Origin: Saccharopolyspora gloriosae
GTDB lineage: Bacteria > Actinomycetota > Actinomycetes > Mycobacteriales > Pseudonocardiaceae
DNA: 64,000 nt
Assembly: GCF_022828475.1 (NCBI RefSeq)
Contig: NZ_CP059557.1
Location: forward strand, 2,463,470 to 2,527,469
Direction: 5' to 3'
Every line of letters begins with the position of its first letter. The stretch's first letter is position 1. The notes beneath the pieces were generated by a model. The model was given only the letters and a program-made list of their open reading frames with translations, did not search any database and was not told where the DNA came from. Made by a program: the position numbers and the translations under genes. Shown here piece after piece: positions 4,422 through 39,234 of the stretch.

Positions 4422-4530
4422 AGCCGTCCTCACGAGGAAGCCGCCGAGAACCCGCCCGTGGTCATTGTGCTCGGGTGATCACTGCTCGTCGGCTTCGCCG
4501 CTGACCAGAATCAGATCAGAAGATCATTGT
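4422..4530 (+). repeat. dispersed ~100-nt intergenic repeat, copy A
   Basis: GCCGTCCTCACGAGGAAGCCGCCGAGAACCCGCCCGTGGTC...GCTCGTCGGCTTCGCCGCTGACCAGAATCAGATCAGAAGATCATTGT; aligns with copies at 25.8 kb and 35.7 kb. Confidence 0.6.
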
Positions 4531-18296: not shown

Positions 18297-18584
18297 CTAT
18301 TTCTCGTACTCGGGTCCGGTTCGAGTGGCCGCATCTCCCGCCAGCGCGGCGGTCGGCGCCGGAACCGGATCCGGATGCCAGAAATCCGCTCCCTTGATGT
18401 TCAGCGCCTTCGGATCGAAGACCGGGTCGATGCCGAGCCTGCGCTGCCGGTCGTAGTCGCGGCAGACCTTGTACACGACCGGGAACAGCAGCATGAGGCA
18501 CACGAGGTTGACCCAGGTGATGAGGCCGAGTCCGATGTCGCCCGCCGGCTGATCACTCGGCGGGCGTCCTTCCGCCCCGGATCA
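18297..18584 (-). pseudogene. C-terminal remnant of an AGCS (alanine/glycine:cation symporter) family transporter
   Basis: In-frame translation from stop at 18582: ...DIGLGLITWVNLVCLMLLFPVVYKVCRDYDRQRRLGIDPVFDPKALNIKGADFWHPD, matching the conserved C-terminus of AGCS symporters; the ~350-aa N-terminal part is absent (replaced by the PfkB/NCS1 operon). Confidence 0.5.
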
Positions 18585-19512
18585 CGGCGTCGACCTCGGC
18601 GGCGATGGGGGCAGTGGCGGGACCGGGCCGGGTCACGGCGATCGCGGCCGCGACACCGGCCCGGCGCACGGCGGCCTCGAGGTCTTCACCGGCCGCCAGC
18701 CGCGCCGACATCACCCCGGCGTGGGCGTCGCCGGCACCGTTGGTGTCCACGGCGTCGACCTCGGGGGAGGGGCAGCTCAGCACGTCCCCGCCGGGGCGGG
18801 AGATGAGCGCGCCGTGCGATCCGGCGCGCAGCACCACGGTGCGGCCGGTGGCGGTGGCCAGCGCTGCCGCCACGGTGGCGCGGTCCTCGGTCTCGGCGTT
18901 CGATCCCAAGCGCCGCAACAGGATCAGCGCCTCCCGCTCGTTCGTGGTCCACACGTCGGCGCGGTCCAGCAGGACGCGCACCGAGTCGAGGCCGACGTCA
19001 CCGATCACGGGGGCGGGATCCACGACGACGGAGCACCCGGCCGGAACCGTCGGCAACCACTCCAGCAGCGCCGCGCGGTTGGCGTCGTGGACGAGGGAGT
19101 AGCCGGACACGTAGACCACGTCGCCGTTGCCCGGCTCGGTGCGGCGCAGCTGAGCGACGTCCACGGCGCTCTCGGCTCCGGCGGTGGAGACGAACGTCCG
19201 CTCCGCGCCGTCATCAACGAGGGCGACGCTGAACCCGGTGTCGGCGCCGGGATCGGCGGGGGCGGCGAGCTCCACGTCCTCGGGCGCCAGCGCCGCGCGC
19301 ACGATGTCCCCGAACGGGCCGGTGCCGTGGCCGCCCGCGTACACGACCCGAGCACCGTCGCGCGCGGCGGCGAGCATGACGTTCACGCCGCCGCCCGCGA
19401 GGAACTCGTGTCCGGAGGCGAACACGTCGCCGCCGGGAGCCGGCACCGAGGGCACTCGCAGCACGAGGTCGACGACGGCCTGTCCGGTGTGGATCACGCG
19501 GCCGGGACTCAT
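18553..19512 (-). CDS. PfkB-family carbohydrate/nucleoside kinase (ribokinase-like)
   Basis: ~318 aa; N-terminal GG motif (FLAGGGVNV), C-terminal DTNGAGDAHAG anion-hole motif; ATG overlaps stop of upstream permease (ATGA). Confidence 0.85.
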   Translation of the reverse strand: MSPGRVIHTGQAVVDLVLRVPSVPAPGGDVFASGHEFLAGGGVNVMLAAARDGARVVYAGGHGTGPFGDIVRAALAPEDVELAAPADPGADTGFSVALVDDGAERTFVSTAGAESAVDVAQLRRTEPGNGDVVYVSGYSLVHDANRAALLEWLPTVPAGCSVVVDPAPVIGDVGLDSVRVLLDRADVWTTNEREALILLRRLGSNAETEDRATVAAALATATGRTVVLRAGSHGALISRPGGDVLSCPSPEVDAVDTNGAGDAHAGVMSARLAAGEDLEAAVRRAGVAAAIAVTRPGPATAPIAAEVDAVIRGGRTPAE

Positions 19513-20984
19513 TTCGCACCCGCCGCGGACCGGAGGCCGAACACCGCGTAGAGCAGCCCGCCGAGGCCGGCGGCGAGGATCCACGACATGCCGTTGGTTC
19601 CGATCCACGTGTCGTACATCGGCCCCGTGTACAACGGAACATCGCCTGGAGTGACCTGCATGAACAGGGCCGCGACGACGATCGCGGCCAGCCACGACCC
19701 GAGGGCGGACCAGCGCACGCCGCCGGTGTAGTAGTAGGCGCCCCGCCGGCTCAGGTCCAGGAGTGCTTCGGGGTCGTAGTCGCGGCGCCGGATCATGTCG
19801 ACGAGGAAGATCCCCACCCACGCCGAGATCGGCACGGCCAGCAGCGAGATGAACGTCGTGAACGGTCCGTAGAACCCGTCGGCGACGAGCAGGAACAGCA
19901 GCGACCCGATCGTTGTGATGACCACGTCGACGATCACCGCGTACACCCGCTTGACCCGCAGCCCGAGGGTGAGGGTCGTCAGGCCCGCCGAGTACACCGA
20001 CAGGTGGTTGGACAGCAGCAGGCCGATGAAGGAGATCACCATGTAGCCGACTGCGATCCAGGTCGGCAGGCTGTCGCGGATGGCATCGAGGGGATTCGCG
20101 GCCGTGGCGATCGCCGGATCGGACGCGCCGAGCACCGACCCCATGCCGATCATGACCACCAGCGGGATGCCCGCACCGGCGGCCGCGGACATCACCAGCG
20201 GCAGGGCGCGCACGGTCGGGGCCTGGTAGCGGGCCATGTCCGCACCGGAGTTCGCCCAGCCGATGCCGGTGCCCGCGACGATGGTGCCGATCCCGGTCAG
20301 CACCGCGGCCAGACCGCCGCTCGGTGTCCGCCCCACTTCCGCCCAGTCGATGTTGACGACCAGGAATGCCAGGAGCAGCAGGTTGACCGCCCCGAAGATC
20401 CAAGTGGACCACTTCTGGACGACCAGGATCACGGCGTGGCCCATGCCGGACACGGCGACGGTGAATCCGACGAACAGCGCCACACCGGCGACGGCGACCA
20501 GCGGCGCGGATTTCGCGTCCTCACCGGTGCCGGTGAGCAGCGAGACGCTCGTGACGATGGCGAGAGCGGCCGTCGAGGTGTTCACCGTCTCCCAGCCGAG
20601 CCGCGACACGAGCGCGATCGCCGTCGGCCCCGCGTTGCCGCGAGTGCCGAAGACGGCGCGGGACAAGGTGAGGCTCGGCGCCCCGCCGCGCCGCCCGGCG
20701 ACGGAGATCAGGCCGACGACGGCGAAGGACCCGAACGCGCCGATGACCGCGACGATGAGGGCCTGCCACACGGACAGGTCGAGGGCCACGAGGCTGACCC
20801 CGAGCGGCATGCCGACCACGGAGATGTTCGCGGCGAACCACACCCAGAACAGCTGCATCGGATTCCCGCGGCGTTCCGCAACGGGCACGGGTTCGATACC
20901 GCGCTGCTCCACCGCACCGAGCGCGCCGGTTTGCGGGGGTTCTAAGGGTTTCGCCGCCGTGGATCCGGTGGGAGTCTCGGACAC
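19509..20984 (-). CDS. NCS1 family nucleobase:cation symporter (purine-cytosine/allantoin permease-like)
   Basis: 491 aa, 12 TM; N-terminal ERRGNPMQLFWVWFAANISV pattern typical of NCS1/CodB transporters. Confidence 0.8.
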   Translation of the reverse strand: MSETPTGSTAAKPLEPPQTGALGAVEQRGIEPVPVAERRGNPMQLFWVWFAANISVVGMPLGVSLVALDLSVWQALIVAVIGAFGSFAVVGLISVAGRRGGAPSLTLSRAVFGTRGNAGPTAIALVSRLGWETVNTSTAALAIVTSVSLLTGTGEDAKSAPLVAVAGVALFVGFTVAVSGMGHAVILVVQKWSTWIFGAVNLLLLAFLVVNIDWAEVGRTPSGGLAAVLTGIGTIVAGTGIGWANSGADMARYQAPTVRALPLVMSAAAGAGIPLVVMIGMGSVLGASDPAIATAANPLDAIRDSLPTWIAVGYMVISFIGLLLSNHLSVYSAGLTTLTLGLRVKRVYAVIVDVVITTIGSLLFLLVADGFYGPFTTFISLLAVPISAWVGIFLVDMIRRRDYDPEALLDLSRRGAYYYTGGVRWSALGSWLAAIVVAALFMQVTPGDVPLYTGPMYDTWIGTNGMSWILAAGLGGLLYAVFGLRSAAGAK

Positions 20985-20988
20985 TGGT

Positions 20989-22017
20989 TCACCTCATCTT
21001 CGTTGACGACCGCCGCACGGCGAGCAGCCGCCGCGCGAGCGTGGCCAGGTCCAGGCCGTTGATGTCGAGGACGCGGCGGACCGCTGCGTCCGGGAACGCC
21101 TCGGCGCCGTGCACGGCGCCGAGCACGGCCCCCGCCATGGCGGCGACGGTGTCGGTGTCGCCGCCGAGGGACGCCGCGGTGCACAGCGCGTCGAACGGGA
21201 ACTCGGCGCCGCGCTCGACGAGCAGGAGCGCGGCCACGACGGACTCCTGCGACTGCACCGACGTGCCGACCACCTCGTAGAGGAACGACTCGAAGTCCTC
21301 GGTGCCGAGCCCTTTCGCGTACCGGCGGAAGGCGTTGAACCGCGCCGGAACGGAGGCGCCCGCCACCCAGTGCCCGCGTGTCTCGCCCTCCCGGGCCGCT
21401 GCGTCGGCGGCCTCGAGGGCTCCGGCGGTGTCCGCTCCGTCGACGCCCGCCGAGACGGCGGCGGCGATGGCGCAGGCGGCGGAGATCCCCAGTCCGGTGT
21501 TGTGGGTGACGCGACCCGCTTCGACGACCGCGTCGATCAGGCGCTCGCCGCGCGGGTGAGCGACTCCGACGGGGGCGATACGCATCGCGGCGCCGTTCGT
21601 CGTCCCGGAGCGGCCGGTCTCCTCTACGGAGACGCCTGCCTGGAGCTTCGCCAGGGCCGCGTTGGTGGAGGGGCCGAGGAGATCCAGCGAGCCGCGCTCG
21701 AGCATCGCCTGTTCCCAGGCGATCAACTGCTCGGCGAAGGCGTGCGCGTCGATGCTCCCGGAACCGTCGCTGATCAGCCGCGCGACGATCATCGCTTGGT
21801 CGGTGTCATCGGTGACGGAGGCGGCGGCCATGCCGGGCGCGATGGGCTGATCGGCGGCGCCGTCGACGAAGTCGCTGATCCGGCCGTAGCGCTCGCGGAT
21901 CCGTTCCCGCGGCATGGACTGGGTCGGCATGCCGAGGGCGTCGCCGATGGCGAGCCCGACGAGCGCGCCGTACGCGCGCTCGAAAGCGGGATCCGCGGCG
22001 TCTTGAGCGGCGGTCAT
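20989..22017 (-). CDS. ADP-ribosylglycohydrolase family protein
   Basis: 342 aa from ATG at 22015-22017 (overlaps GntR stop, ATGA); motifs GALVGLAIGDALG, TDDT, C-terminal GGDTDT typical of ARH fold. Confidence 0.85.
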   Translation of the reverse strand: MTAAQDAADPAFERAYGALVGLAIGDALGMPTQSMPRERIRERYGRISDFVDGAADQPIAPGMAAASVTDDTDQAMIVARLISDGSGSIDAHAFAEQLIAWEQAMLERGSLDLLGPSTNAALAKLQAGVSVEETGRSGTTNGAAMRIAPVGVAHPRGERLIDAVVEAGRVTHNTGLGISAACAIAAAVSAGVDGADTAGALEAADAAAREGETRGHWVAGASVPARFNAFRRYAKGLGTEDFESFLYEVVGTSVQSQESVVAALLLVERGAEFPFDALCTAASLGGDTDTVAAMAGAVLGAVHGAEAFPDAAVRRVLDINGLDLATLARRLLAVRRSSTKMR

Positions 22018-22740
22018 CGTTCGTCTCCGAAGGTGTGCGCGAGGGTGAAGTACCGCGGGTCGAGCAGCGAGACGACGTGCTCGGCGAACCGGCCGTCGTC
22101 GGTGAACGAGGTGCGGGCGGTGCGCAGGAAGACCGTTCCCGCGTCGTGGCGCAGGATCTCGGCTTCCCGTTCGTCCAGCGGGTGCACGTCCGCGCGCTGG
22201 GTGCCGCGCGTGGAGAGGTACCCGGCCTGCACGAGGGTCTGGGAGATCGAGCCCTGGATCAGACCGGTCTCCGGCAGCTCCGCGAGACGGCCGTCGGCGG
22301 GAACCGTGGAGCACTCGAAGGAGATCGGCTCGACGCTGTCCGCGGAACGCAGCAGCCGGACGCGGCGGATCGCGATGCCCTGCTCCAGCCGGACCTCGTC
22401 GGGAAGCAGCGGAACGTCGGAGCGCTGCACGCGCTCGATGCCGAGGACGGCGACGGTGATCTGGCTGCCGGTGGAGGCGAGGGACTGAGCCCAGCCGCGG
22501 TCCTGGCTCAGCTGGTGTCCGTCGAAGATGACGAACGAACCACGGCCGGTTTCGGTGGAGATGAGCCGCAGGTGCTGGAGTTCGCTGAGGGCCTGTCGCA
22601 CGGTGCCCCGCGAGACGTCGAACTCCTCGGCCAGGCGCAGTTCCCCGTCCAGTTTGTCACCGGGACGGTAGTGACCGTCGCGGATGCGCCGCGCGAGGGT
22701 GTCGACGATCTGCTGCCGCTTCCCCGGCACCTGTCTATAC
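22014..22740 (-). CDS. GntR family (HutC subfamily, UTRA effector domain) transcriptional regulator
   Basis: N-terminal winged HTH (GDKLDGELRLAEEFDVSRGTVRQALSEL) plus UTRA-like C-terminus; start chosen at ATG 22738-22740; first gene of the ARH-permease-kinase operon. Confidence 0.8.
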
Positions 22741-22755
22741 ATGTTGGTACATGTA
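22736..22755. promoter_or_regulatory. palindromic/direct-repeat motif at GntR gene 5' end (candidate autoregulatory operator)
   Basis: TACATGTTGGTACATGTACA: two TACATGT copies 11 nt apart containing perfect palindrome GTACATGTAC; local AT-richer patch in divergent promoter region. Confidence 0.3.
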
Positions 22756-22889
22756 CAGCACGACGGCCCGTGGGGCAAGCGGGACGTTCTCGATCGGCCG
22801 AGGCTCCCGCCCGTCTCGTGCCGGGCCGGGGCGAACTCGTCGCTCCGAATTCCCTGTATGTCAGCCGAATCCATCCGTCTGGGGAGTAG

Positions 22890-24065
22890 ATGGACATCGA
22901 GTTCAGGTTCGAAGCTCGGGAAGGCGACGACAGTTCACACGATGAGCTTCGAACGCTCTACGCCCATCTGGGAGGCGACTTCGAACTTCAACGGCACGCG
23001 CGCATATCCGTTCGGCGCGAGTCGTTGCAGTCGGGAGAGCTGGGCGCTGCGGAGGTCGTACTGGCCGCCGTGTCCGCCGGCCTGGGGGTGGGCCGGCTCG
23101 CGATCGCCATCAGGGCGTGGCGCGACGCGATGAACCACCCGACGGCGCTCGCCCTCACCGGCCGGTCCAGCGGGTACGCGCTCGCGGACAACGATCCCGG
23201 CCGCGTGTTCCCGGTGGAGCTCGGCGATCCCGAAGAGCTGAACGTCGCCGCGGACACCGCCCTGACGTTGCGCGGCACGGATGGCAGACCCTACGGGGGT
23301 CGAATCGACGGCGAGGGCATGGTCGTCGAGCCCGGCACCGACACCGTGCTGGTCGGCTCGGAGAAGGGGCCGTCGATCCGCCGTTTCCGGCTCAGCGACG
23401 GGCACGAGGTGGGAACTCCGCTGCCCATTCCGGAGAAGCTGCGCACCGAGCCGTTCGGTGGAGCGCACCAGGGACGCACCACCGAGTCGCTGGCCGCGAC
23501 GGCCGATGGTCGCTACCTCTACGCGGGCTGGGAGGCGCCGCTCAACGACGACGGCGATCAACGAGGGCGAAACCGCCTGCGAATTCAGCGCTATCACGGT
23601 GAACCGGGCGGAAACTACGTCCCGGACCGCCAATGCGCGTACGAGACCAGCACCGGCATGTACTTGGCGGAGCTCGCCGTGACCGAGCAGGATCGGCTGC
23701 TCGCGCTGGAACGGCAGTACGTCGAAGGACTCGGCAACACGGTGCGAGTCGTCGAGCTGCGCCTCACCGACGACAAGGACGTGACGAACACTCCCGCACT
23801 GGCCGAAGTCTCGGCCGATGTGTTCGTCCGCAGCTCATTGCTGTTCAGCCTCGGCGACTGCCCGGCGGGCGGTCCAGAGGTGGTCGCCGGAAAACAACGG
23901 CAGCCGAATCCGTTGCTGGAGAACGTCGAAGGCATGGCCGTAGGCCCCGAAGAGGCCGACGGCCCGGCGAAGGGCTCGCGCCTGCTCTACCTGATCAGCG
24001 ACGACAACGAGAACAACGCCCAGATAACCCGCCTGTACACCTTCCGCATCCGGCTCACCGAATAG
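22890..24065 (+). CDS. EACC1-like N-terminal domain fused to phytase-like (esterase-like activity of phytase family) beta-propeller-type domain
   Basis: N-terminal ~105 aa (DELRTLYAHLGGDFELQRHARISV...GLGVGRLAIAIRAWRD) resembles, from memory, the 'effector-associated constant component EACC1' family; C-terminal ~285 aa has ENVEGMAVGP and LLYLISDDNENNAQITRLY motifs reminiscent of the phytase-like family. Confidence 0.5.
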   Translation: MDIEFRFEAREGDDSSHDELRTLYAHLGGDFELQRHARISVRRESLQSGELGAAEVVLAAVSAGLGVGRLAIAIRAWRDAMNHPTALALTGRSSGYALADNDPGRVFPVELGDPEELNVAADTALTLRGTDGRPYGGRIDGEGMVVEPGTDTVLVGSEKGPSIRRFRLSDGHEVGTPLPIPEKLRTEPFGGAHQGRTTESLAATADGRYLYAGWEAPLNDDGDQRGRNRLRIQRYHGEPGGNYVPDRQCAYETSTGMYLAELAVTEQDRLLALERQYVEGLGNTVRVVELRLTDDKDVTNTPALAEVSADVFVRSSLLFSLGDCPAGGPEVVAGKQRQPNPLLENVEGMAVGPEEADGPAKGSRLLYLISDDNENNAQITRLYTFRIRLTE

Positions 24066-24485
24066 TTCGCCGTCCACGACGCCCGTTCTCGCTTCGGCTT
24101 CCTGACGCATTCGGGGTGGGAGTCGGAGGCATCCACACGCGTGTGACCAGTCGATCTGACCGGCCGCGTTGAGCTCGGCGAGCAACACCTCGTGGAGCCG
24201 GTCGAAGACCCCGCCGATCCCGCAGTCGCCGCCGGCAGGTCATCCCGGAACCGAACCCCAGCACCTGCGGCCGCCGGTCGTCCAGCGCGCCGACGTCACC
24301 CCGGAGACGATCTACCGGCGCTGGGGCGATCTGCAGTAGCTGTCGGACGTCGCGCGGAGAGGGCGAATGAGGCGAGCACGATCGGGAACGTTGTGGGAGC
24401 CCCGTCCCGGCCACCGATGCGTGGGTCGACCGACATCAACTGTGAACGTCGGCAGGAACTCTGATCGCTGGCAGACTTCCGGGGC

Positions 24486-25550
24486 ATGGACACTCCGAAG
24501 GTCCGACGCTCGCTCGCCCTGCATTCGTCGCTCAGGCGCATGCCGCACGACTTGCTGCGCCAGTGGGCCGATCTGGTCGGACCGGATACGTCGCCTGCCG
24601 AACCGGTGGCCGTTCTGGAGGAGCGGATCGCCGGGCTGATGGGCGCTCCGGCCGCGCTGTTCTTCCCCACCGGCGCGATGGCTCAGCAAGTGGCGCTGCG
24701 GATCCACGCGGACCGCCGAGGCAGGCGGACCTTTGCCGGGCATCCGTACCTGCACCTCGATACCTGGGAATTGCAGGGCTACAACGCGGTCCACGGCTTG
24801 CGCTTCCACCCGGCAGGCGACCGGCACGAGCTGCTGGGCAAGGACGATCTGGCCAGGATCGGTGAACCGCTGGCCGCGGTGGTGTGGGAGTTGCCGCAGC
24901 GGGATCTCGGTGGACTGCTGCCGGGGTGGGAGCAGCTGTGCGAGCAGGTGGACCTGGTGCGCTCGCGCGGGGCAGCGGTGCATCTCGACGGCGGTCGGAT
25001 CTTCGAGGCGCAGCCGTTCTACGACCGGCCGCACGCGGAGATCGCAGGGCTCTTCGACACCGTGTACGTCTCCTTGTACAAGGGGCTCAGCGGTGTTCGC
25101 GGTGCGGTGCTGGCCGGTGATGAGGAGACGGTGGCCGAGGCCGCGGTGTGGCGCAAGCGCCTCGGCGGTGCGATCTCGAACGCCTGGCCCTTGGCGCTAG
25201 GAGCGCTGTCGGGGCTGGACCACCTGGTTCCGCGGATGGCGGAGTTCCGCGCTCACGCCGTCGCGATCGCGGCCGCGCTCAACGCCGATGGAATCGTGCG
25301 CGCGTTGCCCGACCCGCCGCAGACCCCGTTGTTTCACGTTCACGTGTCCGCTGCGAAAGCCGCGGTCGAGCGGGCCGGTGCCCAGCTGATCGCGGAGGAC
25401 GGCACAGAACTGTTCTACAAGGTCCGTTCGGCGCCGGATCCGTCGCGATGCGCGTTCGAGATCTGCGTCGGTGAGAACGCGATGGAGTTCAGGCCCGACG
25501 AGGTCGTGGAACTCGTGCGGGATCTGGTGAGTCGTGCGATGAGCGACTGA
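24486..25550 (+). CDS. threonine aldolase-like / beta-eliminating lyase family PLP enzyme
   Basis: 354 aa; ALFFPTGAMAQQVAL and YVSLYKGLSGVRGAVLAG (PLP-lysine region) match low-specificity threonine aldolase family. Confidence 0.7.
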   Translation: MDTPKVRRSLALHSSLRRMPHDLLRQWADLVGPDTSPAEPVAVLEERIAGLMGAPAALFFPTGAMAQQVALRIHADRRGRRTFAGHPYLHLDTWELQGYNAVHGLRFHPAGDRHELLGKDDLARIGEPLAAVVWELPQRDLGGLLPGWEQLCEQVDLVRSRGAAVHLDGGRIFEAQPFYDRPHAEIAGLFDTVYVSLYKGLSGVRGAVLAGDEETVAEAAVWRKRLGGAISNAWPLALGALSGLDHLVPRMAEFRAHAVAIAAALNADGIVRALPDPPQTPLFHVHVSAAKAAVERAGAQLIAEDGTELFYKVRSAPDPSRCAFEICVGENAMEFRPDEVVELVRDLVSRAMSD

Positions 25551-25789
25551 ACCGTCCCACCGGACCGCACGGGCAGGTTCCAAGGGATCGTCGTCGGACT
25601 GTGCGGCAATGAGTCGAAATCGCAGTGCCTCTGTGGGGAACCGGAAACCTGTGTCCGCCGTGCCGGTGTGTGTCCAGCAGGACGGGACCGAAGCCGCTGT
25701 CGGATCGGCGGGCATTGCAGGGGATCTTGTTCGTGCTGTTCACGGGGATCGGGGGATCTTCCGCAGGAGCTGGGGCTCGGTTCCGGTAT

Positions 25790-25897
25790 GACCTGCTGCC
25801 AGGAAGCCGCTGAAAACCCGCCGGTGGCCGTCCTGCTGGGGCGCTCAGTGCTCAGTGGCTTCACCGCTGACAAGAGGCGGATCAAGACCATTCTGCA
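25790..25897 (+). repeat. dispersed ~100-nt intergenic repeat, copy B
   Basis: CAGGAAGCCGCTGAAAACCCGCCGGTGGCC...GCTCAGTGGCTTCACCGCTGACAAGAGGCGGATCAAGACCATTCT; ~70% identical to copy A over ~100 nt, same orientation. Confidence 0.6.
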
Positions 25898-26083
25898 CTG
25901 ATTCCTTACTCCGAATGGGCGGTAGGTCTTCCGGTGGAGTCGGCCCTGCCGCCAACATGGCCGAGGTGAAGATCGAACCGGTGCTCCGTTGACCGATGTT
26001 GTGGTCGGCCCGGCCGTGGAAGGAGCAGCGTGCCCAACTGCCGCCTGCGCGCGGCCGCGACCGCATCGGGTTGAGGAGTGCGA

Positions 26084-28852
26084 GTGCTGGATCCGCGCGC
26101 TGAAGCGGTATTGATCTTTGATCAGTCGGCTGGTCGGTTTCAGGATCGGACAGCCGACATATCCGCGGTCGAGCCTTTGGCGGACGGGCGGGTCGGCATC
26201 GTGTTCAACGGTGGCAAGCGCTATCCGTACGGATCGGGGCGTGTGCGGGCTCTTCGCGACCCGGAACGCATCGCGCTCAACGGAGAAGTTCGGGTCGAGG
26301 TGCGCGGAGCTGTCTGGGAAAGCGCCGTCGAGATCGCCACGTTCGCTGATTCGGAGGGCGCGTGGGCCAGGGTTTTCTACCGGCGCAAGGGAAACGAGAC
26401 GTACCGGACCTATCCTGATTCGGAAGTACGCGTTCTCACGTCCGCGACCGGATCCGGGGCGGCGGCCGAGGTGTTCCGCTACTGGCGGGACGTCGTGGCC
26501 GGGCTCCCCGGTGACGATCCGCTGGTGCGGCCGTACGGCAGGCTGAGTTTCGTCAACCCGGAGAGCGCGCTGGGGGCGTACCTGGCCGGTGCACCGATCA
26601 CGCCGCGCGAACCGACCGGTGTCGCGATCTTCCCGTTCCGGTGCAACCTGAGTCAGCGCCAGGCGGTCGAGAACGCCCTCACCCGTTCCGTTTCGGTCAT
26701 CCAAGGTCCGCCCGGGACCGGAAAGACCGAAACCATCCTGAACCTGATCGCCAACATCACCGTGCGAGATCGGACCGTCGGCGTCGTGTCGCACAGCAAC
26801 TCCGCCGTCGACAACGTGCGGGAGAAGCTCGTTGAACTGGGCTTCGGGCATGTGTTGGCGAGCCTCGGAAAACAGGAGAAGCGCAAGGAGTTCTTCGCCG
26901 GGCAGGCCGATCGCAACGCACGGGTCGCCGGCTTCGCCGCCGAGACTCCGCCGCCGCCCGAACCCGGGCGGCTGGCCGACGTGGACCGGCGCTTGCGCCG
27001 CCTGCAGTCCACCGAACGCACCTTGGCGCAGCGACGGCACGAGGTGGCGGCGTACGGATTGGAGCGGGAGCACTTCGAACGGCACCTGCACGGGGACGAG
27101 ATGCCCGACCTCTCCGGCCTCCCGCTGCTTCGCCGCTCCTCCGGGCGCATCTTGGACTACCTGGCCGAAAGCGAGCTGGAGCGCAACGGTGCTCGTCCCG
27201 GGCTGATTCGGCGGATCCGGAAGTACTTTCGCTACGGCTCGGTGCGCGGCCTCGACCCCGAGGACACCGACGTGGTCCTCCGGCTGCAACGTGCCTACTA
27301 CACGAAGCGGATCGCCGAGCTGGACAAGGAAATCGCGCAACTCGACGAGGAACTGAGACGAGCGGACTTCGACCGGTTGGCGCAGGAACATCGGCAACTG
27401 TCGGTGCAGGCCCTGCACGCTCACCTCGGCGCTCGGTACGGCGGGCTCGCGCGGAAGGAGTACGACGGGGAGACGTATCGGCGGAGCAAGGAATTCCGGG
27501 ACTTCATCGAGGATTACCCGGTCCTGTTGAGCACCTGCCACTCGTTGAGCTCCAGCATCGAGGACGGTTTCCTGCTCGACCACCTCATCATCGACGAGGC
27601 CTCCCAGGTCGACCCACTAGTGGCCGGATTGGCGCTGGCGTGCTGCCGCAACCTCGTCGTGGTGGGAGATGCCGAGCAGTTGCCGCCGATCCCGGCAGCC
27701 TCCGCAGCCGACCACGAGGCACCGAGCCCCGCGTACGACTGCAGACGGAGCATCCTCGGCTCGCTGGAGACGTTGTACGGCGAGGCGCTCCCGAGCGCGC
27801 TCCTGCGCGAGCACTACCGGTGCGACCCGGCGATCATCGGGTTCTGCAACAAGAAGTTCTACCGCGACGAGCTCATCCCTTACACGACCGGTGGCGACGG
27901 CCGCCCGATGATCGTGGTGCGCACGGTCGAAGGAAACCACATGCGCCGGCATCGGACCGGGGGCCGCTCGAACCGCCGCGAAGTGGAGGTCATCGAGACC
28001 GAAGTGATCCCGGACCACTGCGCCGAGGTCGACGCGGCCGACATCGGCATCACCACGCCCTATCGGCTCCAGGCGGACAAAGCCCGCGACCTGCTCGATC
28101 AGATCGCGTCCGACACCGTGCACAAGTTCCAAGGCAGGCAGAAGAAGGTGGTCGTGATGACCACCGTCCTCGACGAAACGTGGCGCGGTCGCAGCGGTTT
28201 GCCGTTCGCCGACGACCCGCACCTGATCAACGTGGCGGTGTCGCGGGCGATCGAGCGCTTCATCCTGGTGACGAACAACGACATGCTGCCGACCAGCCGG
28301 CACATCCGGGACCTGATCGGTCACATCCGCTACCACGATCTTGACGAGGACGTCGTGGACAGCGCGGTGGTCTCGATCTTCGACCTGCTCTACCAGCAGT
28401 ACTCGTTACGGCTGCGATCACTGGCCGGGCGGCTGAAGAACGAGCGGGCCTACAAGTCCGAGGACATCGCGTGGACCGTGCTCCACGAGGTCCTCGCCGA
28501 GCAGCGCTACGAACACCTGACCGTCGTCGCTCAAGTGCTGGTGAAGAGCCTGTTCCCGGACCTGAGCGTGCTCACGCCGGAGCAGGCGAAATACGCCGGG
28601 AATCGAGCATCGGTCGACTTCGTCATCTACAACCGCGTGACGAACCGGCCGCTGCTGGCGATCGAGGTCGACGGCTTCGCCTACCACGAGAACAAGCCGG
28701 AACAACTGCGGCGGGACGAGCTGAAGAATCAGATCTTCCGCACTCACGACATGCCGCTGTTGCGATTGCCGACCACTGGAAGCGGCGAGCAACGTCGAAT
28801 CCGGCAGGCATTGGACGAAGCCGAAACCCACTGGGCGCAGCAGGCGCAGTGA
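26084..28852 (+). CDS. SF1 (Upf1/DNA2-like, AAA_11/AAA_12) helicase with C-terminal DUF2726 (PD-(D/E)xK-like nuclease fold) domain
   Basis: Walker A GPPGTGKTE, DEASQ Walker B box, QGRQKKVVVMT motif VI region; C-terminal ...ASVDFVIYNRVTNRPLLAIEVDGFAYHENKPEQLRRDELKNQIF matches DUF2726; ~190-aa N-terminal domain unassigned; GTG start after GAGGAG. Confidence 0.8.
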   Translation: MLDPRAEAVLIFDQSAGRFQDRTADISAVEPLADGRVGIVFNGGKRYPYGSGRVRALRDPERIALNGEVRVEVRGAVWESAVEIATFADSEGAWARVFYRRKGNETYRTYPDSEVRVLTSATGSGAAAEVFRYWRDVVAGLPGDDPLVRPYGRLSFVNPESALGAYLAGAPITPREPTGVAIFPFRCNLSQRQAVENALTRSVSVIQGPPGTGKTETILNLIANITVRDRTVGVVSHSNSAVDNVREKLVELGFGHVLASLGKQEKRKEFFAGQADRNARVAGFAAETPPPPEPGRLADVDRRLRRLQSTERTLAQRRHEVAAYGLEREHFERHLHGDEMPDLSGLPLLRRSSGRILDYLAESELERNGARPGLIRRIRKYFRYGSVRGLDPEDTDVVLRLQRAYYTKRIAELDKEIAQLDEELRRADFDRLAQEHRQLSVQALHAHLGARYGGLARKEYDGETYRRSKEFRDFIEDYPVLLSTCHSLSSSIEDGFLLDHLIIDEASQVDPLVAGLALACCRNLVVVGDAEQLPPIPAASAADHEAPSPAYDCRRSILGSLETLYGEALPSALLREHYRCDPAIIGFCNKKFYRDELIPYTTGGDGRPMIVVRTVEGNHMRRHRTGGRSNRREVEVIETEVIPDHCAEVDAADIGITTPYRLQADKARDLLDQIASDTVHKFQGRQKKVVVMTTVLDETWRGRSGLPFADDPHLINVAVSRAIERFILVTNNDMLPTSRHIRDLIGHIRYHDLDEDVVDSAVVSIFDLLYQQYSLRLRSLAGRLKNERAYKSEDIAWTVLHEVLAEQRYEHLTVVAQVLVKSLFPDLSVLTPEQAKYAGNRASVDFVIYNRVTNRPLLAIEVDGFAYHENKPEQLRRDELKNQIFRTHDMPLLRLPTTGSGEQRRIRQALDEAETHWAQQAQ

Positions 28853-28887: not shown

Positions 28888-29538
28888 TCAGCCGGGGAAT
28901 CGGATCAGTGCCGCTGTGGACAGGTCCCCGCCGTAGTACAGCTCCTGGGACTCGACGAGCCGCGCGCCGGGCATCAGGGCGAGGTAGTCGTCCACCGAGC
29001 GCAGCCGGGACCACTCGCTGACCGGGATCGCCGCCTGCGCGTACTCCACGAGCACGAAGTATCGGCAGGAGCGGGAGATCGACCGGCAGATCTCGGCCAG
29101 TGCCGCCTCGTCGAGCACGTGCATGAGCACCCATACCGACACGGCGACGTCGATCTTCCGGCCTTCCCACGGCAGGTCCTCGGCGCGCGCGAATTCGAAA
29201 TCCACATTGGACAGATGTGCGCATGATGCCCGTGCTTCGTCCAGCATTCCGGGAGTCATGTCCAGTGCGGTGACCCGGCCCGCGTGGGCGGCCAGAGTCG
29301 GGGTCAGGCGGCCGATCCCGCAACCGATCTCCAGCACGGTGGACAGCGGGCGAGCGAGCTCCCGAGCCGCGGTCCGCAGGCCCGCCGACACCGCATCGCG
29401 GGTCCGTTCCGTCGTGGCCGCGTTGTGCTCGGCAGGCTGAGAAGCCCGCATCACGCGGGCCAGGCCGTCCCGGCGCGACCGCTGCCGCCATTCTCCGGCC
29501 ACATCGGTCGTGGAAACGGTGGAAGTGTTGTTGTGCAC
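28888..29538 (-). CDS. class I SAM-dependent methyltransferase (small-molecule type)
   Basis: Motif I VLEIGCGIGRLT, acidic motif II; 216 aa (true start may be internal). Confidence 0.7.
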   Translation of the reverse strand: MHNNTSTVSTTDVAGEWRQRSRRDGLARVMRASQPAEHNAATTERTRDAVSAGLRTAARELARPLSTVLEIGCGIGRLTPTLAAHAGRVTALDMTPGMLDEARASCAHLSNVDFEFARAEDLPWEGRKIDVAVSVWVLMHVLDEAALAEICRSISRSCRYFVLVEYAQAAIPVSEWSRLRSVDDYLALMPGARLVESQELYYGGDLSTAALIRFPG

Positions 29539-29924
29539 GAAGTATCTCCCCAGTGTGGAGGTCCACCGCGAGTTCCGTTGCGGCGATCCCGCGCCCGGCG
29601 GGAAACCGGATTCCGCAACGGTGACTCGCGGATATCGACGGAGCCGGCCGCGATGACGTCCGGTACGCGAGTCGTGACCGAGAACGTGCGCGGAATCTGA
29701 TCACAATCGCGATCATGAACTTATCCGAGCCGAAAGCTGAAAGAACAGCCATCGGCCGTGAATGCCGCCCATCTTCACTCCTCAGAGTGATGGCGTCGGG
29801 TCGGGTGAAGACCTCCTTCCACCGGCTCCGCCCAGGTGGAGGAGGCATTCACCTGAGGCTTGTGAACCTTTTCGTCGGCCGTGTGCGTGATACCTGCGTA
29901 GGCGGTGTGAGGGGAGGGGATCAC

Positions 29925-37419: not shown

Positions 37420-39234
37420 TCAGTGGAGCGCGCCGCAGGACATGGCGTTCTCGTCGTCGGCGGCACCGGGCTCCAGGCGGATGTCCGAGAAGGTGACGTC
37501 CATCCTCTTGTCGGAGTACACGAGGAACGGAGTGTCGACCTGGTCCGGCTTCAGATCCTCGTTCAGTTCGTGCGAGGGCACGCCTTCCGGGCGCGGCGTC
37601 ACCTTGGTGAAGCAGTCCAATGGGATCTTGATCGGTGTCGGCGTTCCGGTCGGTAGCCGGCGGAAGAGATCGTCGGCGGGGACTTCACCTCCGCACGGGT
37701 GGCCGCAATGGATCGCGACCCCGGCGTAGTGGGCAGGCGGTGTGCGCACGTTCGCGGTGAACACGAGCGCCCCGTGATCGCTTAGGTAAGGCCGGAGGTC
37801 GATCAGCGGGGCGTCCTCCTTGGTCTGGATGTACAGCTGGGCGGGCTGGCCGTCGTTCCAGGTGGCGCGGAGCCCGCCGGGCTCCGGCCCGACGCGCATC
37901 GCACCGTCCAGCTCGTGGGAGAACTCCGTTCCCCGCCATTCGTCCTGCGCTGAAGCGATGAAACCGGAGTACCGGTCGGAGACGGCTCCGGCGTAGATCG
38001 TCTCGGCCCCGGGGCCGCTCGTGGCGATGGCCACGACACCGACGAGCAGCGCGGCCACCGCGGCGATGCCGGACACCAACCACGCCCGCCGGACCTTCGG
38101 CAACCGTGTCCTGGTCGACGGTGTTCCGGCGGAAGCACCGGGCACGCCGGTCGGCACCGAGCTCGGCGGAACAGCGGGGCGTGCCCGCGCGGACACCTGG
38201 GCGGCGCCGAGCGCCACGGTGTACTTCGGATGCAGCGCTCCCCGGACGGGTTTGCCGAATTCGCGGGCGAGCTGCTGAGCGACGAGCGGGACCCGGGAGG
38301 AACCGCCCGCGAGCAGCACGGCGGACAGCTGGTCGGCGCGGAGTCCCGCCGACGCGATGGTGCGGTGCAGCGCTTCGACGGTGTCTCCGACCGGGCGCGC
38401 GATCAGCGCGTTGAACTCTTGCCGAGTGATGCCGAGCTCGCGCGGACCGGTGGGCAGCGGGACGTTCAGGCGCACCTCGGGTTCGCTGGACAGCGATTCC
38501 TTCGCGCGCACGCACATCGTCTCGATCGTGGCCAGCGCGTAAGCCGACCGTGGATCGTCCGGGTCGAGTGCGCTGATCGCCCCGTCGAGCCGCCGGTCGA
38601 GGTGGTCGAAGATCGCCTGGTCGAAGTCCGCACCGCCGAGGTGGTCGATTCCGTCCGGAGTGCCGAGGATTTCCATCCGGCCCGCCCGCATGCGCAGGAT
38701 CGTGGAGTCGAAGGTGCCGCCGCCGAGGTCGTAGACGGCGATGACCTCGCCGTCGCCGAGGCGTCGTTCACTGGAGTAATGGGTGGCGGCGGCCTCGGGT
38801 TCGGTGACGAGGTGGAAATTCGGGACGTGCGCCAGCCGGGGGACCTCGGTGAAGTGCTGGCGCCGATAGCGCCCCCAGATCGCGGGGTAGGTGAGCACGA
38901 CCGAGTCCGGCGGCCCGCCCATGGACCGGATCGCGGTGGCGAGCACGTCGCGCAGCTGCGCGGCCATCAGCGCGGTGGGGGAGAAGCCGGCTCCGCCGAG
39001 GAACAGCGGCGTCGGATCGCCCAAGCGGCGCTTGAAGTTCCGGGCGACCTGGCCCGGGTCGGCGCCCGGGTACAGCGCGGCGTCACCGGTCAGCAACGCG
39101 CCGTCCGGTGTGCGGTAGGCCGCCGAGGGAACGACCACCGCAGGCGACATCGGCACCATGCGGGTGCCCGCCGGACCGCTGACGGCAGCGGAGGTGAACG
39201 AGGTTCCGAGATCGATCCCGAGGCCGTAACGCAC
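37420..39234 (-). CDS. Hsp70 family (actin-like ATPase) protein with C-terminal transmembrane anchor and extracytoplasmic domain
   Basis: 604 aa; N-terminal GIDLGTSFTSAAV phosphate-1 motif, DLGGGTFD phosphate-2, later a TM helix (WLVSGIAAVAALLVGVVAIA) and ~200-aa C-terminal domain; convergent with the sigma factor gene. Confidence 0.7.
   Translation of the reverse strand: MRYGLGIDLGTSFTSAAVSGPAGTRMVPMSPAVVVPSAAYRTPDGALLTGDAALYPGADPGQVARNFKRRLGDPTPLFLGGAGFSPTALMAAQLRDVLATAIRSMGGPPDSVVLTYPAIWGRYRRQHFTEVPRLAHVPNFHLVTEPEAAATHYSSERRLGDGEVIAVYDLGGGTFDSTILRMRAGRMEILGTPDGIDHLGGADFDQAIFDHLDRRLDGAISALDPDDPRSAYALATIETMCVRAKESLSSEPEVRLNVPLPTGPRELGITRQEFNALIARPVGDTVEALHRTIASAGLRADQLSAVLLAGGSSRVPLVAQQLAREFGKPVRGALHPKYTVALGAAQVSARARPAVPPSSVPTGVPGASAGTPSTRTRLPKVRRAWLVSGIAAVAALLVGVVAIATSGPGAETIYAGAVSDRYSGFIASAQDEWRGTEFSHELDGAMRVGPEPGGLRATWNDGQPAQLYIQTKEDAPLIDLRPYLSDHGALVFTANVRTPPAHYAGVAIHCGHPCGGEVPADDLFRRLPTGTPTPIKIPLDCFTKVTPRPEGVPSHELNEDLKPDQVDTPFLVYSDKRMDVTFSDIRLEPGAADDENAMSCGALH

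Follow-up and report, generated by a model that had tools for sequence, protein, structure and literature searches.

Upf1-like helicase-nuclease proteins and a related gene of Saccharopolyspora gloriosae

In Mokosh type II, one protein combines an Upf1-like helicase with a PLD nuclease at its C-terminus, and defence depends on both activities. Work by Millman et al. from 2022 is said to have validated this system (MkoC) as a single-gene anti-phage system. For Hhe, the composition reportedly given by Gao et al. in 2020 is that of a DUF4011 domain, a superfamily 1 (SF1) helicase and a Vsr/DUF559-like endonuclease. The CnuH protein of CoCoNuT is an Upf1-like helicase too, in which Walker A is followed by a large helical insertion that is coiled-coil in part (PMC11090510), and in type III-B CnuH a Vsr-like nuclease is directly fused, while the N-terminus is made up of a winged helix-turn-helix (wHTH) and an oligonucleotide/oligosaccharide-binding (OB) fold (Bell et al., eLife 2024; PMC11090510). 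A further example, Nhi (Bari et al. 2022), comprises ~610 amino acids (aa) and joins an N-terminal HsdR-like nuclease to a C-terminal DUF2075/SLFN-g3 SF1 helicase (PMC11232893). The present work deals with a gene of S. gloriosae that locates to positions 26084..28852 (+ strand) of a 64,000-nucleotide stretch of contig NZ_CP059557.1 (hereafter the window, to which positions refer) and codes for a protein with an N-terminal module of its own, an Upf1-like motor and a C-terminal Vsr-like nuclease domain. This protein is best viewed as a variant of the known class of Upf1-like helicase-nuclease defence proteins in which the effector is swapped, and by analogy it may provide single-gene immunity to invading nucleic acid (phages, plasmids, mobile elements), a function to which a probability of roughly one half is given.

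Gene and domain architecture

The reading frame (GTG start, stop at 28852, 922 aa plus stop) represents an intact gene, and its GC content of 0.85 at third as opposed to 0.44 at second codon positions, within a window of ~69% GC, is a pattern typical of coding DNA. The protein is 100% identical to S. gloriosae RefSeq entry WP_243794343.1 ('AAA domain-containing protein'), which is annotated with 869 aa and starts 53 codons downstream, whereby window positions 26084-26242 are omitted and most of the first beta-barrel of the N-terminal module is lost. As the homologues can be aligned from residue 1 (MLDPR in the S. gloriosae protein, MIDPR in the consensus), as a GAGGAG ribosome-binding site lies 6 nucleotides (nt) 5' of the GTG at 26084, and as the DNA homology with a second S. 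gloriosae-like assembly (hereafter the sister strain) starts at 26073, position 26084 was taken as the correct start, and judged by these sequence features the RefSeq start is too late. A second in-frame GTG that is possible as start was found at 26078.

The 922-aa protein was scanned against Pfam, whereby hits were judged against the family cut-offs and listed to E <= 1. The three-part architecture proposed in a first-pass annotation of the window, i.e., an AAA_11/AAA_12 helicase with a C-terminal DUF2726 domain and an unassigned N-terminus, was borne out, as AAA_11 (residues 187-536, E 1.4e-27, 97 bits), AAA_12 (residues 564-732, E 3.2e-21, 76 bits) and DUF2726 (residues 790-912, E 4.7e-11, 42.9 bits with a cut-off of 24.7) all scored above their cut-offs, and residues 1-186 matched no Pfam family. 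A sub-threshold match to REase_MTES_1575 covered residues 838-895. The motifs GPPGTGKTE (208-216) and DEASQ (504-508) are present in the protein as that annotation had quoted them, and the motif VDF...IEVDGFAYHE...RRDELK was located at 844-881.

Comparison with PADLOC identified MkoC (5.9e-53) and MkoA (4.7e-43) as best matches, followed by PDC-S37 and Hhe, in each case for the helicase core only. Among validated systems Mokosh type II comes closest, since in both cases a single polypeptide carries an Upf1-like (COG1112, AAA_11/AAA_12) helicase and, C-terminal to it, a nuclease. However, Mokosh type II uses a PLD nuclease in place of the DUF2726 domain of the S. gloriosae protein, the match to the 1136-position MkoC profile was limited to its helicase part, and PLD was not among the Pfam hits listed. 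Hhe is similar in being a single protein with an SF1 helicase fused to a nuclease of the Vsr/DUF559 branch, and PADLOC detects a relationship between the helicase cores (7.5e-17), but Hhe measures ~1800-1900 aa and carries at its N-terminus a DUF4011 region, for which no Pfam match was obtained here. The NCBIfam model 'DUF4011 domain-containing anti-phage protein Hhe' (NF042953) reached 79.7 bits with a cut-off of 2000, for residues 497-677 only, and the C-terminal domain searched alone gave no PADLOC match to Hhe. By description, the sequences being uncompared, type III-B CnuH resembles the protein in its Upf1-like motor, its insertion after Walker A, its small N-terminal domain of nucleic-acid-binding type and its fused Vsr-like nuclease. 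In contrast, CnuH always occurs with the McrB/McrC-like CnuB/CnuC (and CnuA, CnuD), and its wHTH and OB folds differ from the two SH3-like barrels found here. Matches to AAA_5/McrB or McrC were absent from the neighbouring genes in the window, and such genes were not a conserved neighbour across 83 loci of the family.

The eukaryotic-type helicases Dna2, Upf1, IGHMBP2 and Sen1 share the SF1B fold and motifs, and Dna2 also couples a PD-(D/E)xK nuclease to its motor, but that nuclease is N-terminal, RecB-like and equipped with an iron-sulfur cluster, and the accessory domains are unrelated. As to Nhi, the likeness is that of a single protein that uses an SF1 helicase together with a nuclease in immunity, whereas the domain order is opposite, the nuclease HsdR-like and not Vsr-like, the helicase of DUF2075 and not of Upf1-like type, and the size ~610 and not 922 aa. 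PF09848 (DUF2075/SLFN-g3) stayed below its cut-off (21.9 of 24 bits) and covered the Walker A region only (residues 202-251), and the Nhi model was not among the PADLOC matches listed. Membership in the Nhi family was thus rejected, as the domain order and both domain families differ, and the term 'Nhi-type' used in the first-pass annotation had to be given up for a protein with a C-terminal Vsr-like nuclease and an Upf1-like motor, what is left being a loose functional analogy.

The helicase motor

Helicases of the Upf1-like clade translocate in 5'->3' direction on single-stranded RNA or DNA. By sequence and fold, the motor of the S. gloriosae protein is an Upf1/IGHMBP2/Dna2/Sen1-like SF1B helicase. 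Its RecA1 half (AAA_11, residues 187-536; 26642..27691, +) contains the Walker A motif GPPGTGKT (208-215), motif II DEAS (504-507) and GDxxQLPP (528-535), and no column of these motifs varies among 45 close and 47 distant homologues. The RecA2 half (AAA_12, residues 564-732; 27773..28279, +), which is likewise documented by profile matches to the Protein Data Bank (PDB) and by Foldseek, contains EHYRC (576-580), TVHKFQGRQ (678-686) and VAVSRA (717-722). When a profile of the 45 homologues was compared with the PDB, IGHMBP2, Dna2, Sen1 and Upf1 were matched at E 1e-30 to 1e-21, and the match of the same profile to RecD was limited to Walker A. The full-length AlphaFold model (pLDDT, short for predicted local distance difference test, of 75) was found by Foldseek to be most similar to the folds of SETX, IGHMBP2 and UPF1, then to those of Sen1, Aquarius, Dna2 and ZNFX1, at an identity of only ~15%.

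Within RecA1, the secondary structure of the full-length model revealed a large alpha-helical insertion (~residues 256-478; 26849..27517, +), i.e., ~220 residues between Walker A and motif II, the long helices of which (294-333, 392-426, 429-453) look, in the model, like a coiled-coil stalk. In a separate observation, the AlphaFold confidence was very low (pLDDT 25-55) over much of residues 578-760 (RecA2; window ~27815-28363), despite strong conservation and a clear AAA_12 match, which may be an artefact of a shallow alignment.

A housekeeping identity of the helicase, which the earlier annotation had named as a finding that would speak against its proposal, was rejected. The NCBIfam models for RecD2 (TIGR01448), RecD (TIGR01447) and IGHMBP2 scored 48 of 500, 46 of 310 and 140 of 349 bits required, respectively, the two former matches being confined to Walker A, and the genomic position of the gene is conserved neither across the genus nor across the Pseudonocardiaceae.

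The nuclease domain

DUF2726 was classed together with Vsr/DUF559 in the PD-(D/E)xK superfamily (PMC3424549). In the S. gloriosae protein the domain (residues 790-912; 28451..28819, +) is defined by the Pfam match, by conservation and by the model, which shows an alpha/beta core with a pLDDT of 80-90. Its conserved core consists of D845, E861-V-D863-G, H868, Q874, R877, D878 and K881 (nt 28616-28726), corresponding to the signature hDFhh...hhAIEVDG..H....Q..RD..K. In 47 divergent members (31-74% identity), all of which possess DUF2726 together with AAA_11, the residues D845, E861 and D878 show no variation, while conservation is at least 90% for D863, H868, Q874, R877 and K881. The loss of catalytic residues, which the first-pass annotation had named as another finding that would speak against its proposal, is hence not seen, the acidic/His/Lys core being kept throughout. 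Judged by these residues, the domain is a Vsr-like PD-(D/E)xK nuclease domain that keeps its catalytic residues and may be active. A profile search of the PDB with the C-terminal domain gave an insignificant match only (E 0.52), namely to the Vsr-like intron endonuclease 3r3p.

The N-terminal module

The confident structure model of residues 1-120 (26084..26443, +) revealed two consecutive small SH3-like beta-barrels (~7-58 and 61-119), which are followed, according to model and conservation, by a helical linker or 'stalk' (residues 121-186; 26444..26641, +) with helices at 125-139, 148-155 and 162-167. The N-terminus is thus confidently modelled as two small SH3-like beta-barrels plus helices, and the linker runs into the helicase Q-motif region FPFxxNxSQxxAV (184-195). 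A nuclease signature was not found in the barrels, and PADLOC yielded zero matches when the N-terminal part, the RecA1 insertion or the C-terminal part (183 aa) was searched alone. The earlier statement that this domain belongs to no recognisable sequence family still holds, as no Pfam or PADLOC family was assigned to it. When the N-terminal region alone was compared with 1.84 billion representative proteins, only 203 clusters were obtained, nearly every full-length match measured ~850-980 aa, and the region was N-terminal in all of them, from which it follows that the module is specific to this helicase-nuclease architecture. In the proteobacterial members BLAST aligns only from residue 158, yet the same N-terminal module is present at profile level (hhalign 97.5%, E 6e-12), and this clade retains the VFRYW helix and the linker as well.

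The position of the module corresponds to that of the barrel-plus-stalk accessory domains which precede RecA1 in Upf1-like helicases, a likeness by position alone. With a nonsynonymous divergence (dN) of 0.196 the barrels are the fastest-evolving part of the protein, as expected of a recognition module, for which they are a candidate on sequence grounds. As the double barrel occurs only in this helicase-nuclease family, it may be seen as a candidate specificity module, the partner of which could be single-stranded nucleic acid, a phage single-stranded DNA-binding protein (SSB) or another molecule.

Distribution of the family and selection

More than 1000 homologues were found, the members of the family measuring ~900-980 aa. 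The best 120 homologues (90%-identity clusters) have lengths of ~860-976 aa and share 62-85% identity with the query across 93% or more of its length, and the named sequences among them are almost all from Pseudonocardiaceae, yet only three clusters are named Saccharopolyspora and two Amycolatopsis. In a scan of one genome per species, full-length relatives with 30-50% identity were identified in six phyla, namely Actinomycetota (Leifsonia, Nocardia, Actinomyces), Bacillota (many Clostridia, Streptococcus sanguinis, Pectinatus, Selenomonas), Bacteroidota (Dysgonomonas, Prevotella, Alistipes, Sinomicrobium), Pseudomonadota (Helicobacter, Oxalobacter, Pseudomonas, Burkholderia), Spirochaetota and Fibrobacterota. 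A megaplasmid of Arthrobacter, plasmids of Bacteroides and Parabacteroides and replicons of Ralstonia and Caballeronia also bear copies, and two phage-labelled gut contigs carry members of the family. The homologue of E. coli (WP_236479692; 893 aa, 36% identity, same architecture), which RefSeq names only 'AAA domain-containing protein' or 'DUF2726 domain-containing protein', is present in 648 of 5426 complete genomes (~12%), where it resides in an insertion sequence (IS)-rich genomic island beside PAPS-reductase/ParB-type genes, including that of O157:H7 and O104:H4. Judged from these sequences, the family is widespread, patchy and horizontally scattered. No study of a DUF2726-bearing AAA_11/AAA_12 family was found in the literature searched, and no annotation name characterises it. 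One distant member (1172 aa) carries additional Toprim (Pfam 2e-11) and bacterial topoisomerase (5e-23) domains and is the sole architectural exception among 47 scanned.

Down to 31% identity, the ATPase motifs (Walker A, DEAS, motifs III-VI) and the nuclease residues are invariant or nearly so. Compared with the sister-strain orthologue (84.5% aa identity), the ratio of nonsynonymous to synonymous divergence (dN/dS) is 0.23 overall and below 0.41 in every domain, and by this measure the gene is functional and under purifying selection in all of its domains.

These data also bear on the idea of an accessory DNA-repair or recombination enzyme that would act, in a Dna2-like manner, on host 5' flaps, stalled forks or R-loops. 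Such a role was considered as the best PDB matches include Dna2, which is a nuclease-helicase and belongs to the same Upf1-like clade, and as Vsr itself is a repair nuclease (PMC3424549). It would further be in line with vertical inheritance and flank-like purifying selection in the two Saccharopolyspora strains, with the many Pseudonocardiaceae copies that lie amid metabolic genes with neither a mobile nor a defence marker, and with the alkylation-repair genes ~2.5 kb downstream of a Parabacteroides copy. However, the patchiness within genera, including the restriction to a genomic island in about an eighth of the E. coli genomes, and the spread over six phyla at 30-50% identity with neither a fixed position nor a partner are atypical of repair pathways, and no repair-family profile reached its cut-off. 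An accessory repair function thus appears unlikely, and single-gene immunity is maintained as the preferred reading.

Genomic neighbourhoods across the family

All-against-all clustering of the open reading frames (ORFs) of the 83 loci and the window revealed no common neighbour, as the helicase itself is shared by 76 loci and the next genuine cluster by 12. A conserved partner gene was thus rejected, the helicase being the sole gene shared across the loci, and in the Pseudonocardiaceae the position of the gene differs in every genus inspected, with no genus-wide synteny. In a census of 124 flanking ORFs from 35 loci, Pfam identified a housekeeping mix with a minority of conflict-type families (SLFN-g3 helicase 3, ResIII 3, NERD 2, DUF1016 2). 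Two loci are suggestive of defence or mobility settings, as the Parabacteroides copy lies downstream of genes for SNF2, a large N6-methylase and a TIR protein, and the Kutzneria copy has a TrwC fragment, an integrase and DUF4096 as neighbours.

Side observations were made at three of these loci. In Kutzneria viridogrisea (locus L003, 7326-7946) and Amycolatopsis sp. EV170708-02-1 (locus L090, 7340-7945) an ORF of ~200 aa with a TrwC-relaxase domain lies 55 bp upstream of the helicase-nuclease gene, and the two TrwC-like proteins are 55% identical to each other. As a partner this ORF was rejected, since it was found at only two of ~10 Pseudonocardiaceae loci and is absent from the window. In E. 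coli O104:H4 the IS-rich island that holds the homologue also contains, ~10 kb downstream of it, genes for a protein kinase and a PP2C phosphatase (locus L089, 24411-26682); the parallel with the kinase/PP2C genes in the window is probably coincidental, IS elements and ordinary genes lying between.

A role that serves a mobile element, for instance in the maintenance, replication or transfer of an integrative element or plasmid or in entry exclusion, or else that of a selfish nuclease-helicase of homing type, would explain the TrwC ORF in Kutzneria and the one Amycolatopsis, the integrase, DUF4096 and IS genes near several loci together with the IS remnant in the window, and the existence of plasmid copies. 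The DNA shared with the sister strain around the gene is almost precisely the gene alone (26073-28841), with unrelated DNA on both sides, and the Vsr-like fold is also used by a group I intron homing endonuclease. Yet no consistent mobility gene was found across the 83 loci, the TrwC-like ORF included, 16 of 18 copy-bearing plasmid records are typed non-mobilizable, most of them being megaplasmids or chromids, and neither terminal repeats nor target duplications surround the gene. A mobile-element function was thus judged to be quite improbable.

Proposed function

Considering the architecture, the conserved catalytic residues and the accessory, scattered and partner-less distribution, single-gene immunity was regarded as the best available explanation for the helicase-nuclease; it is favoured, moreover, as the helicase cores of Mokosh MkoC and MkoA are the best PADLOC matches and the distribution is mobile and partner-less. 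In which direction the motor moves, whether DNA or RNA is its substrate, what triggers the protein and which biological role it has are inferred from what is known of Upf1-like helicases and from the analogy to Mokosh type II and Hhe. The suggested mechanism assumes that the N-terminal double beta-barrel and stalk would recognise or thread a single-stranded substrate, or recognise a protein bound to it. The ATP-driven Upf1-like SF1B motor would then move 5'->3' along single-stranded DNA or RNA, and the C-terminal Vsr-like PD-(D/E)xK domain, tethered via a helical linker, would cut the nucleic acid tracked or unwound by the motor.

Several findings weigh against an immune function. No experiment on the family was found in the literature searched, the RefSeq name of both the E. 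coli and the S. gloriosae protein is no more than 'AAA domain-containing protein', and no PADLOC or NCBIfam anti-phage model covers the whole 922-aa protein. Enrichment of defence genes is weak, as no PADLOC family was matched by more than two of the 124 flanking ORFs, and many neighbours, including those at many Pseudonocardiaceae loci, are ordinary metabolic genes. Furthermore, the divergence of the gene between the two Saccharopolyspora strains is near that of its flanks (84.5% versus 84-89% aa identity; synonymous divergence, dS, 0.40 versus 0.30), the flanking genes showing a dS of 0.30 and omega values of 0.21-0.31, and by this comparison the gene is vertically inherited in this lineage, at the edge of a variable region and not obviously in rapid flux.

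At odds slightly below even, the protein could be the founding example of an unrecognised, widespread immune family, in which a Mokosh/Upf1-type motor and a Vsr-type nuclease are combined with a family-specific double-barrel sensor that would set the specificity for the invader. If it is a defence gene, a common single-gene system would be added to the helicase-nuclease class, with the E. coli homologue from the O157:H7/O104:H4 islands as an easily tested representative. The family would then also provide a clean natural case of effector swapping on an Upf1-like chassis, to which PLD is attached in Mokosh, HEPN, PLD or Vsr in CoCoNuTs and a Vsr-like domain here. If it is not, an accessory repair-type helicase-nuclease of modest interest would be left. 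Helicase-nuclease fusions are a familiar theme and the mechanism would be unsurprising; the breadth and the uncharacterised state of the family make it a reasonable candidate.

The S. gloriosae locus

Upstream of the helicase-nuclease gene lie a gene for a 391-aa protein with N-terminal EACC1 (Effector Associated Constant Component 1) and a phytase-like esterase part (22890-24065, +), which had no PADLOC match, and a beta-eliminating lyase gene (24486-25550). The lyase gene and an IS remnant separate the EACC1 gene from the helicase. The remnant (25620..25900, +) was recognised from translations read by eye (...RRALQGILFVLFTGIG / DLPQELGLGSGMTC...) as a frameshifted N-terminal part of an IS5-type (DUF4096-like) transposase together with a short repeat; Pfam gave no match on its fragments, and the IS5-type identity is tentative. 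The short degenerate repeat element (~25760-25890), partial copies of which (77-92% identical) occur at 4435-4528, 24235-24270 (inverted) and 35700-35737, is probably the 'repeat copy' of the first-pass annotation. Large repeats, terminal repeats or target duplications flanking the gene were not found, the repeats being short degenerate IS-related fragments only.

Downstream, a convergent S-adenosylmethionine methyltransferase gene (28888-29538, -) is followed by a 444-aa ORF (29715-31049, +) with neither a Pfam nor a PADLOC match, which may not be a real gene as called, its GC3 signal being below the filter. Next comes a TerY-P-like cluster of co-directional genes (31056-35574, +) coding for an SPFH/Band_7 protein (583 aa), a PP2C phosphatase, a Ser/Thr kinase and a von Willebrand factor A (vWA) protein. 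The PP2C/kinase/vWA genes begin ~3.8 kb downstream of the helicase, and in PADLOC the kinase matched mad6 at 3.7e-20 and the kinase portion of Mokosh MkoA at 1.6e-15. The placement of the helicase between the EACC1 gene and the TerY-P-like genes, downstream of a repeat, is hence right in outline, whereas the lyase gene, the methyltransferase gene and the 444-aa ORF intervene.

Within 10 kb on either side, only two segments are common to both strains, a block at 18566-22760 (87.8%; PfkB-permease-ADP-ribosylglycohydrolase-GntR) and the gene itself (26073-28841, 86.0%), and in the sister strain the DNA between block and helicase, as well as that downstream, is unrelated to the window. As unrelated DNA lies beside the sister-strain orthologue, the EACC1-phytase, lyase, IS remnant, methyltransferase and SPFH/PP2C/kinase/vWA genes are not conserved companions. 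A functional link to the TerY-P-like or EACC1 genes was rejected for the same reason, and as the PP2C/kinase/vWA families do not recur among flanking genes elsewhere. Of the supposed defence-island context, a thin version is left, since both sets of genes are absent at the sister-strain orthologue and only a minority of the flanking genes at the 35 loci is defence-like.

The TerY-P-like genes also touch on a further idea, namely that of a stand-alone relative of type III-B CnuH that would act on RNA, in the surveillance or restriction of aberrant or viral transcripts, and may cooperate with these genes. Upf1, Sen1/SETX and IGHMBP2, the best matches of the motor, are RNA helicases; type III-B CnuH has both the insertion and the fused Vsr-like nuclease, RNA targeting was proposed for CoCoNuT, and in CoCoNuT types II and III-A CnuH occurs together with TerY-P triads. 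The nearby PP2C/kinase/vWA genes, with a kinase that matches the kinase part of MkoA, and the kinase and PP2C genes of the E. coli O104:H4 island would fit this idea. Against it, no McrB/McrC-like genes adjoin the helicase here or at other loci, TerY-P-like genes are absent beside the sister-strain orthologue and at all other loci examined, TerY-P is reported never to occur with the Vsr-fused type III-B, and nucleases of the PD-(D/E)xK/Vsr type are mostly DNases. An RNA-directed CnuH relative is thus a doubtful reading, and single-gene immunity with DNA or RNA as possible substrate is preferred.

Two minor observations were made further downstream. A 299-aa ORF with no family match (35779-36678, +) contains two tandem 48-nt copies at 36333-36428, which are 79% identical. 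Beyond it, a gene for an Hsp70-like ATPase with a C-terminal galactose-binding-like (Exop_C) domain (37420-39234, -) adjoins a gene for an extracytoplasmic function (ECF)-type sigma factor (36898-37398).

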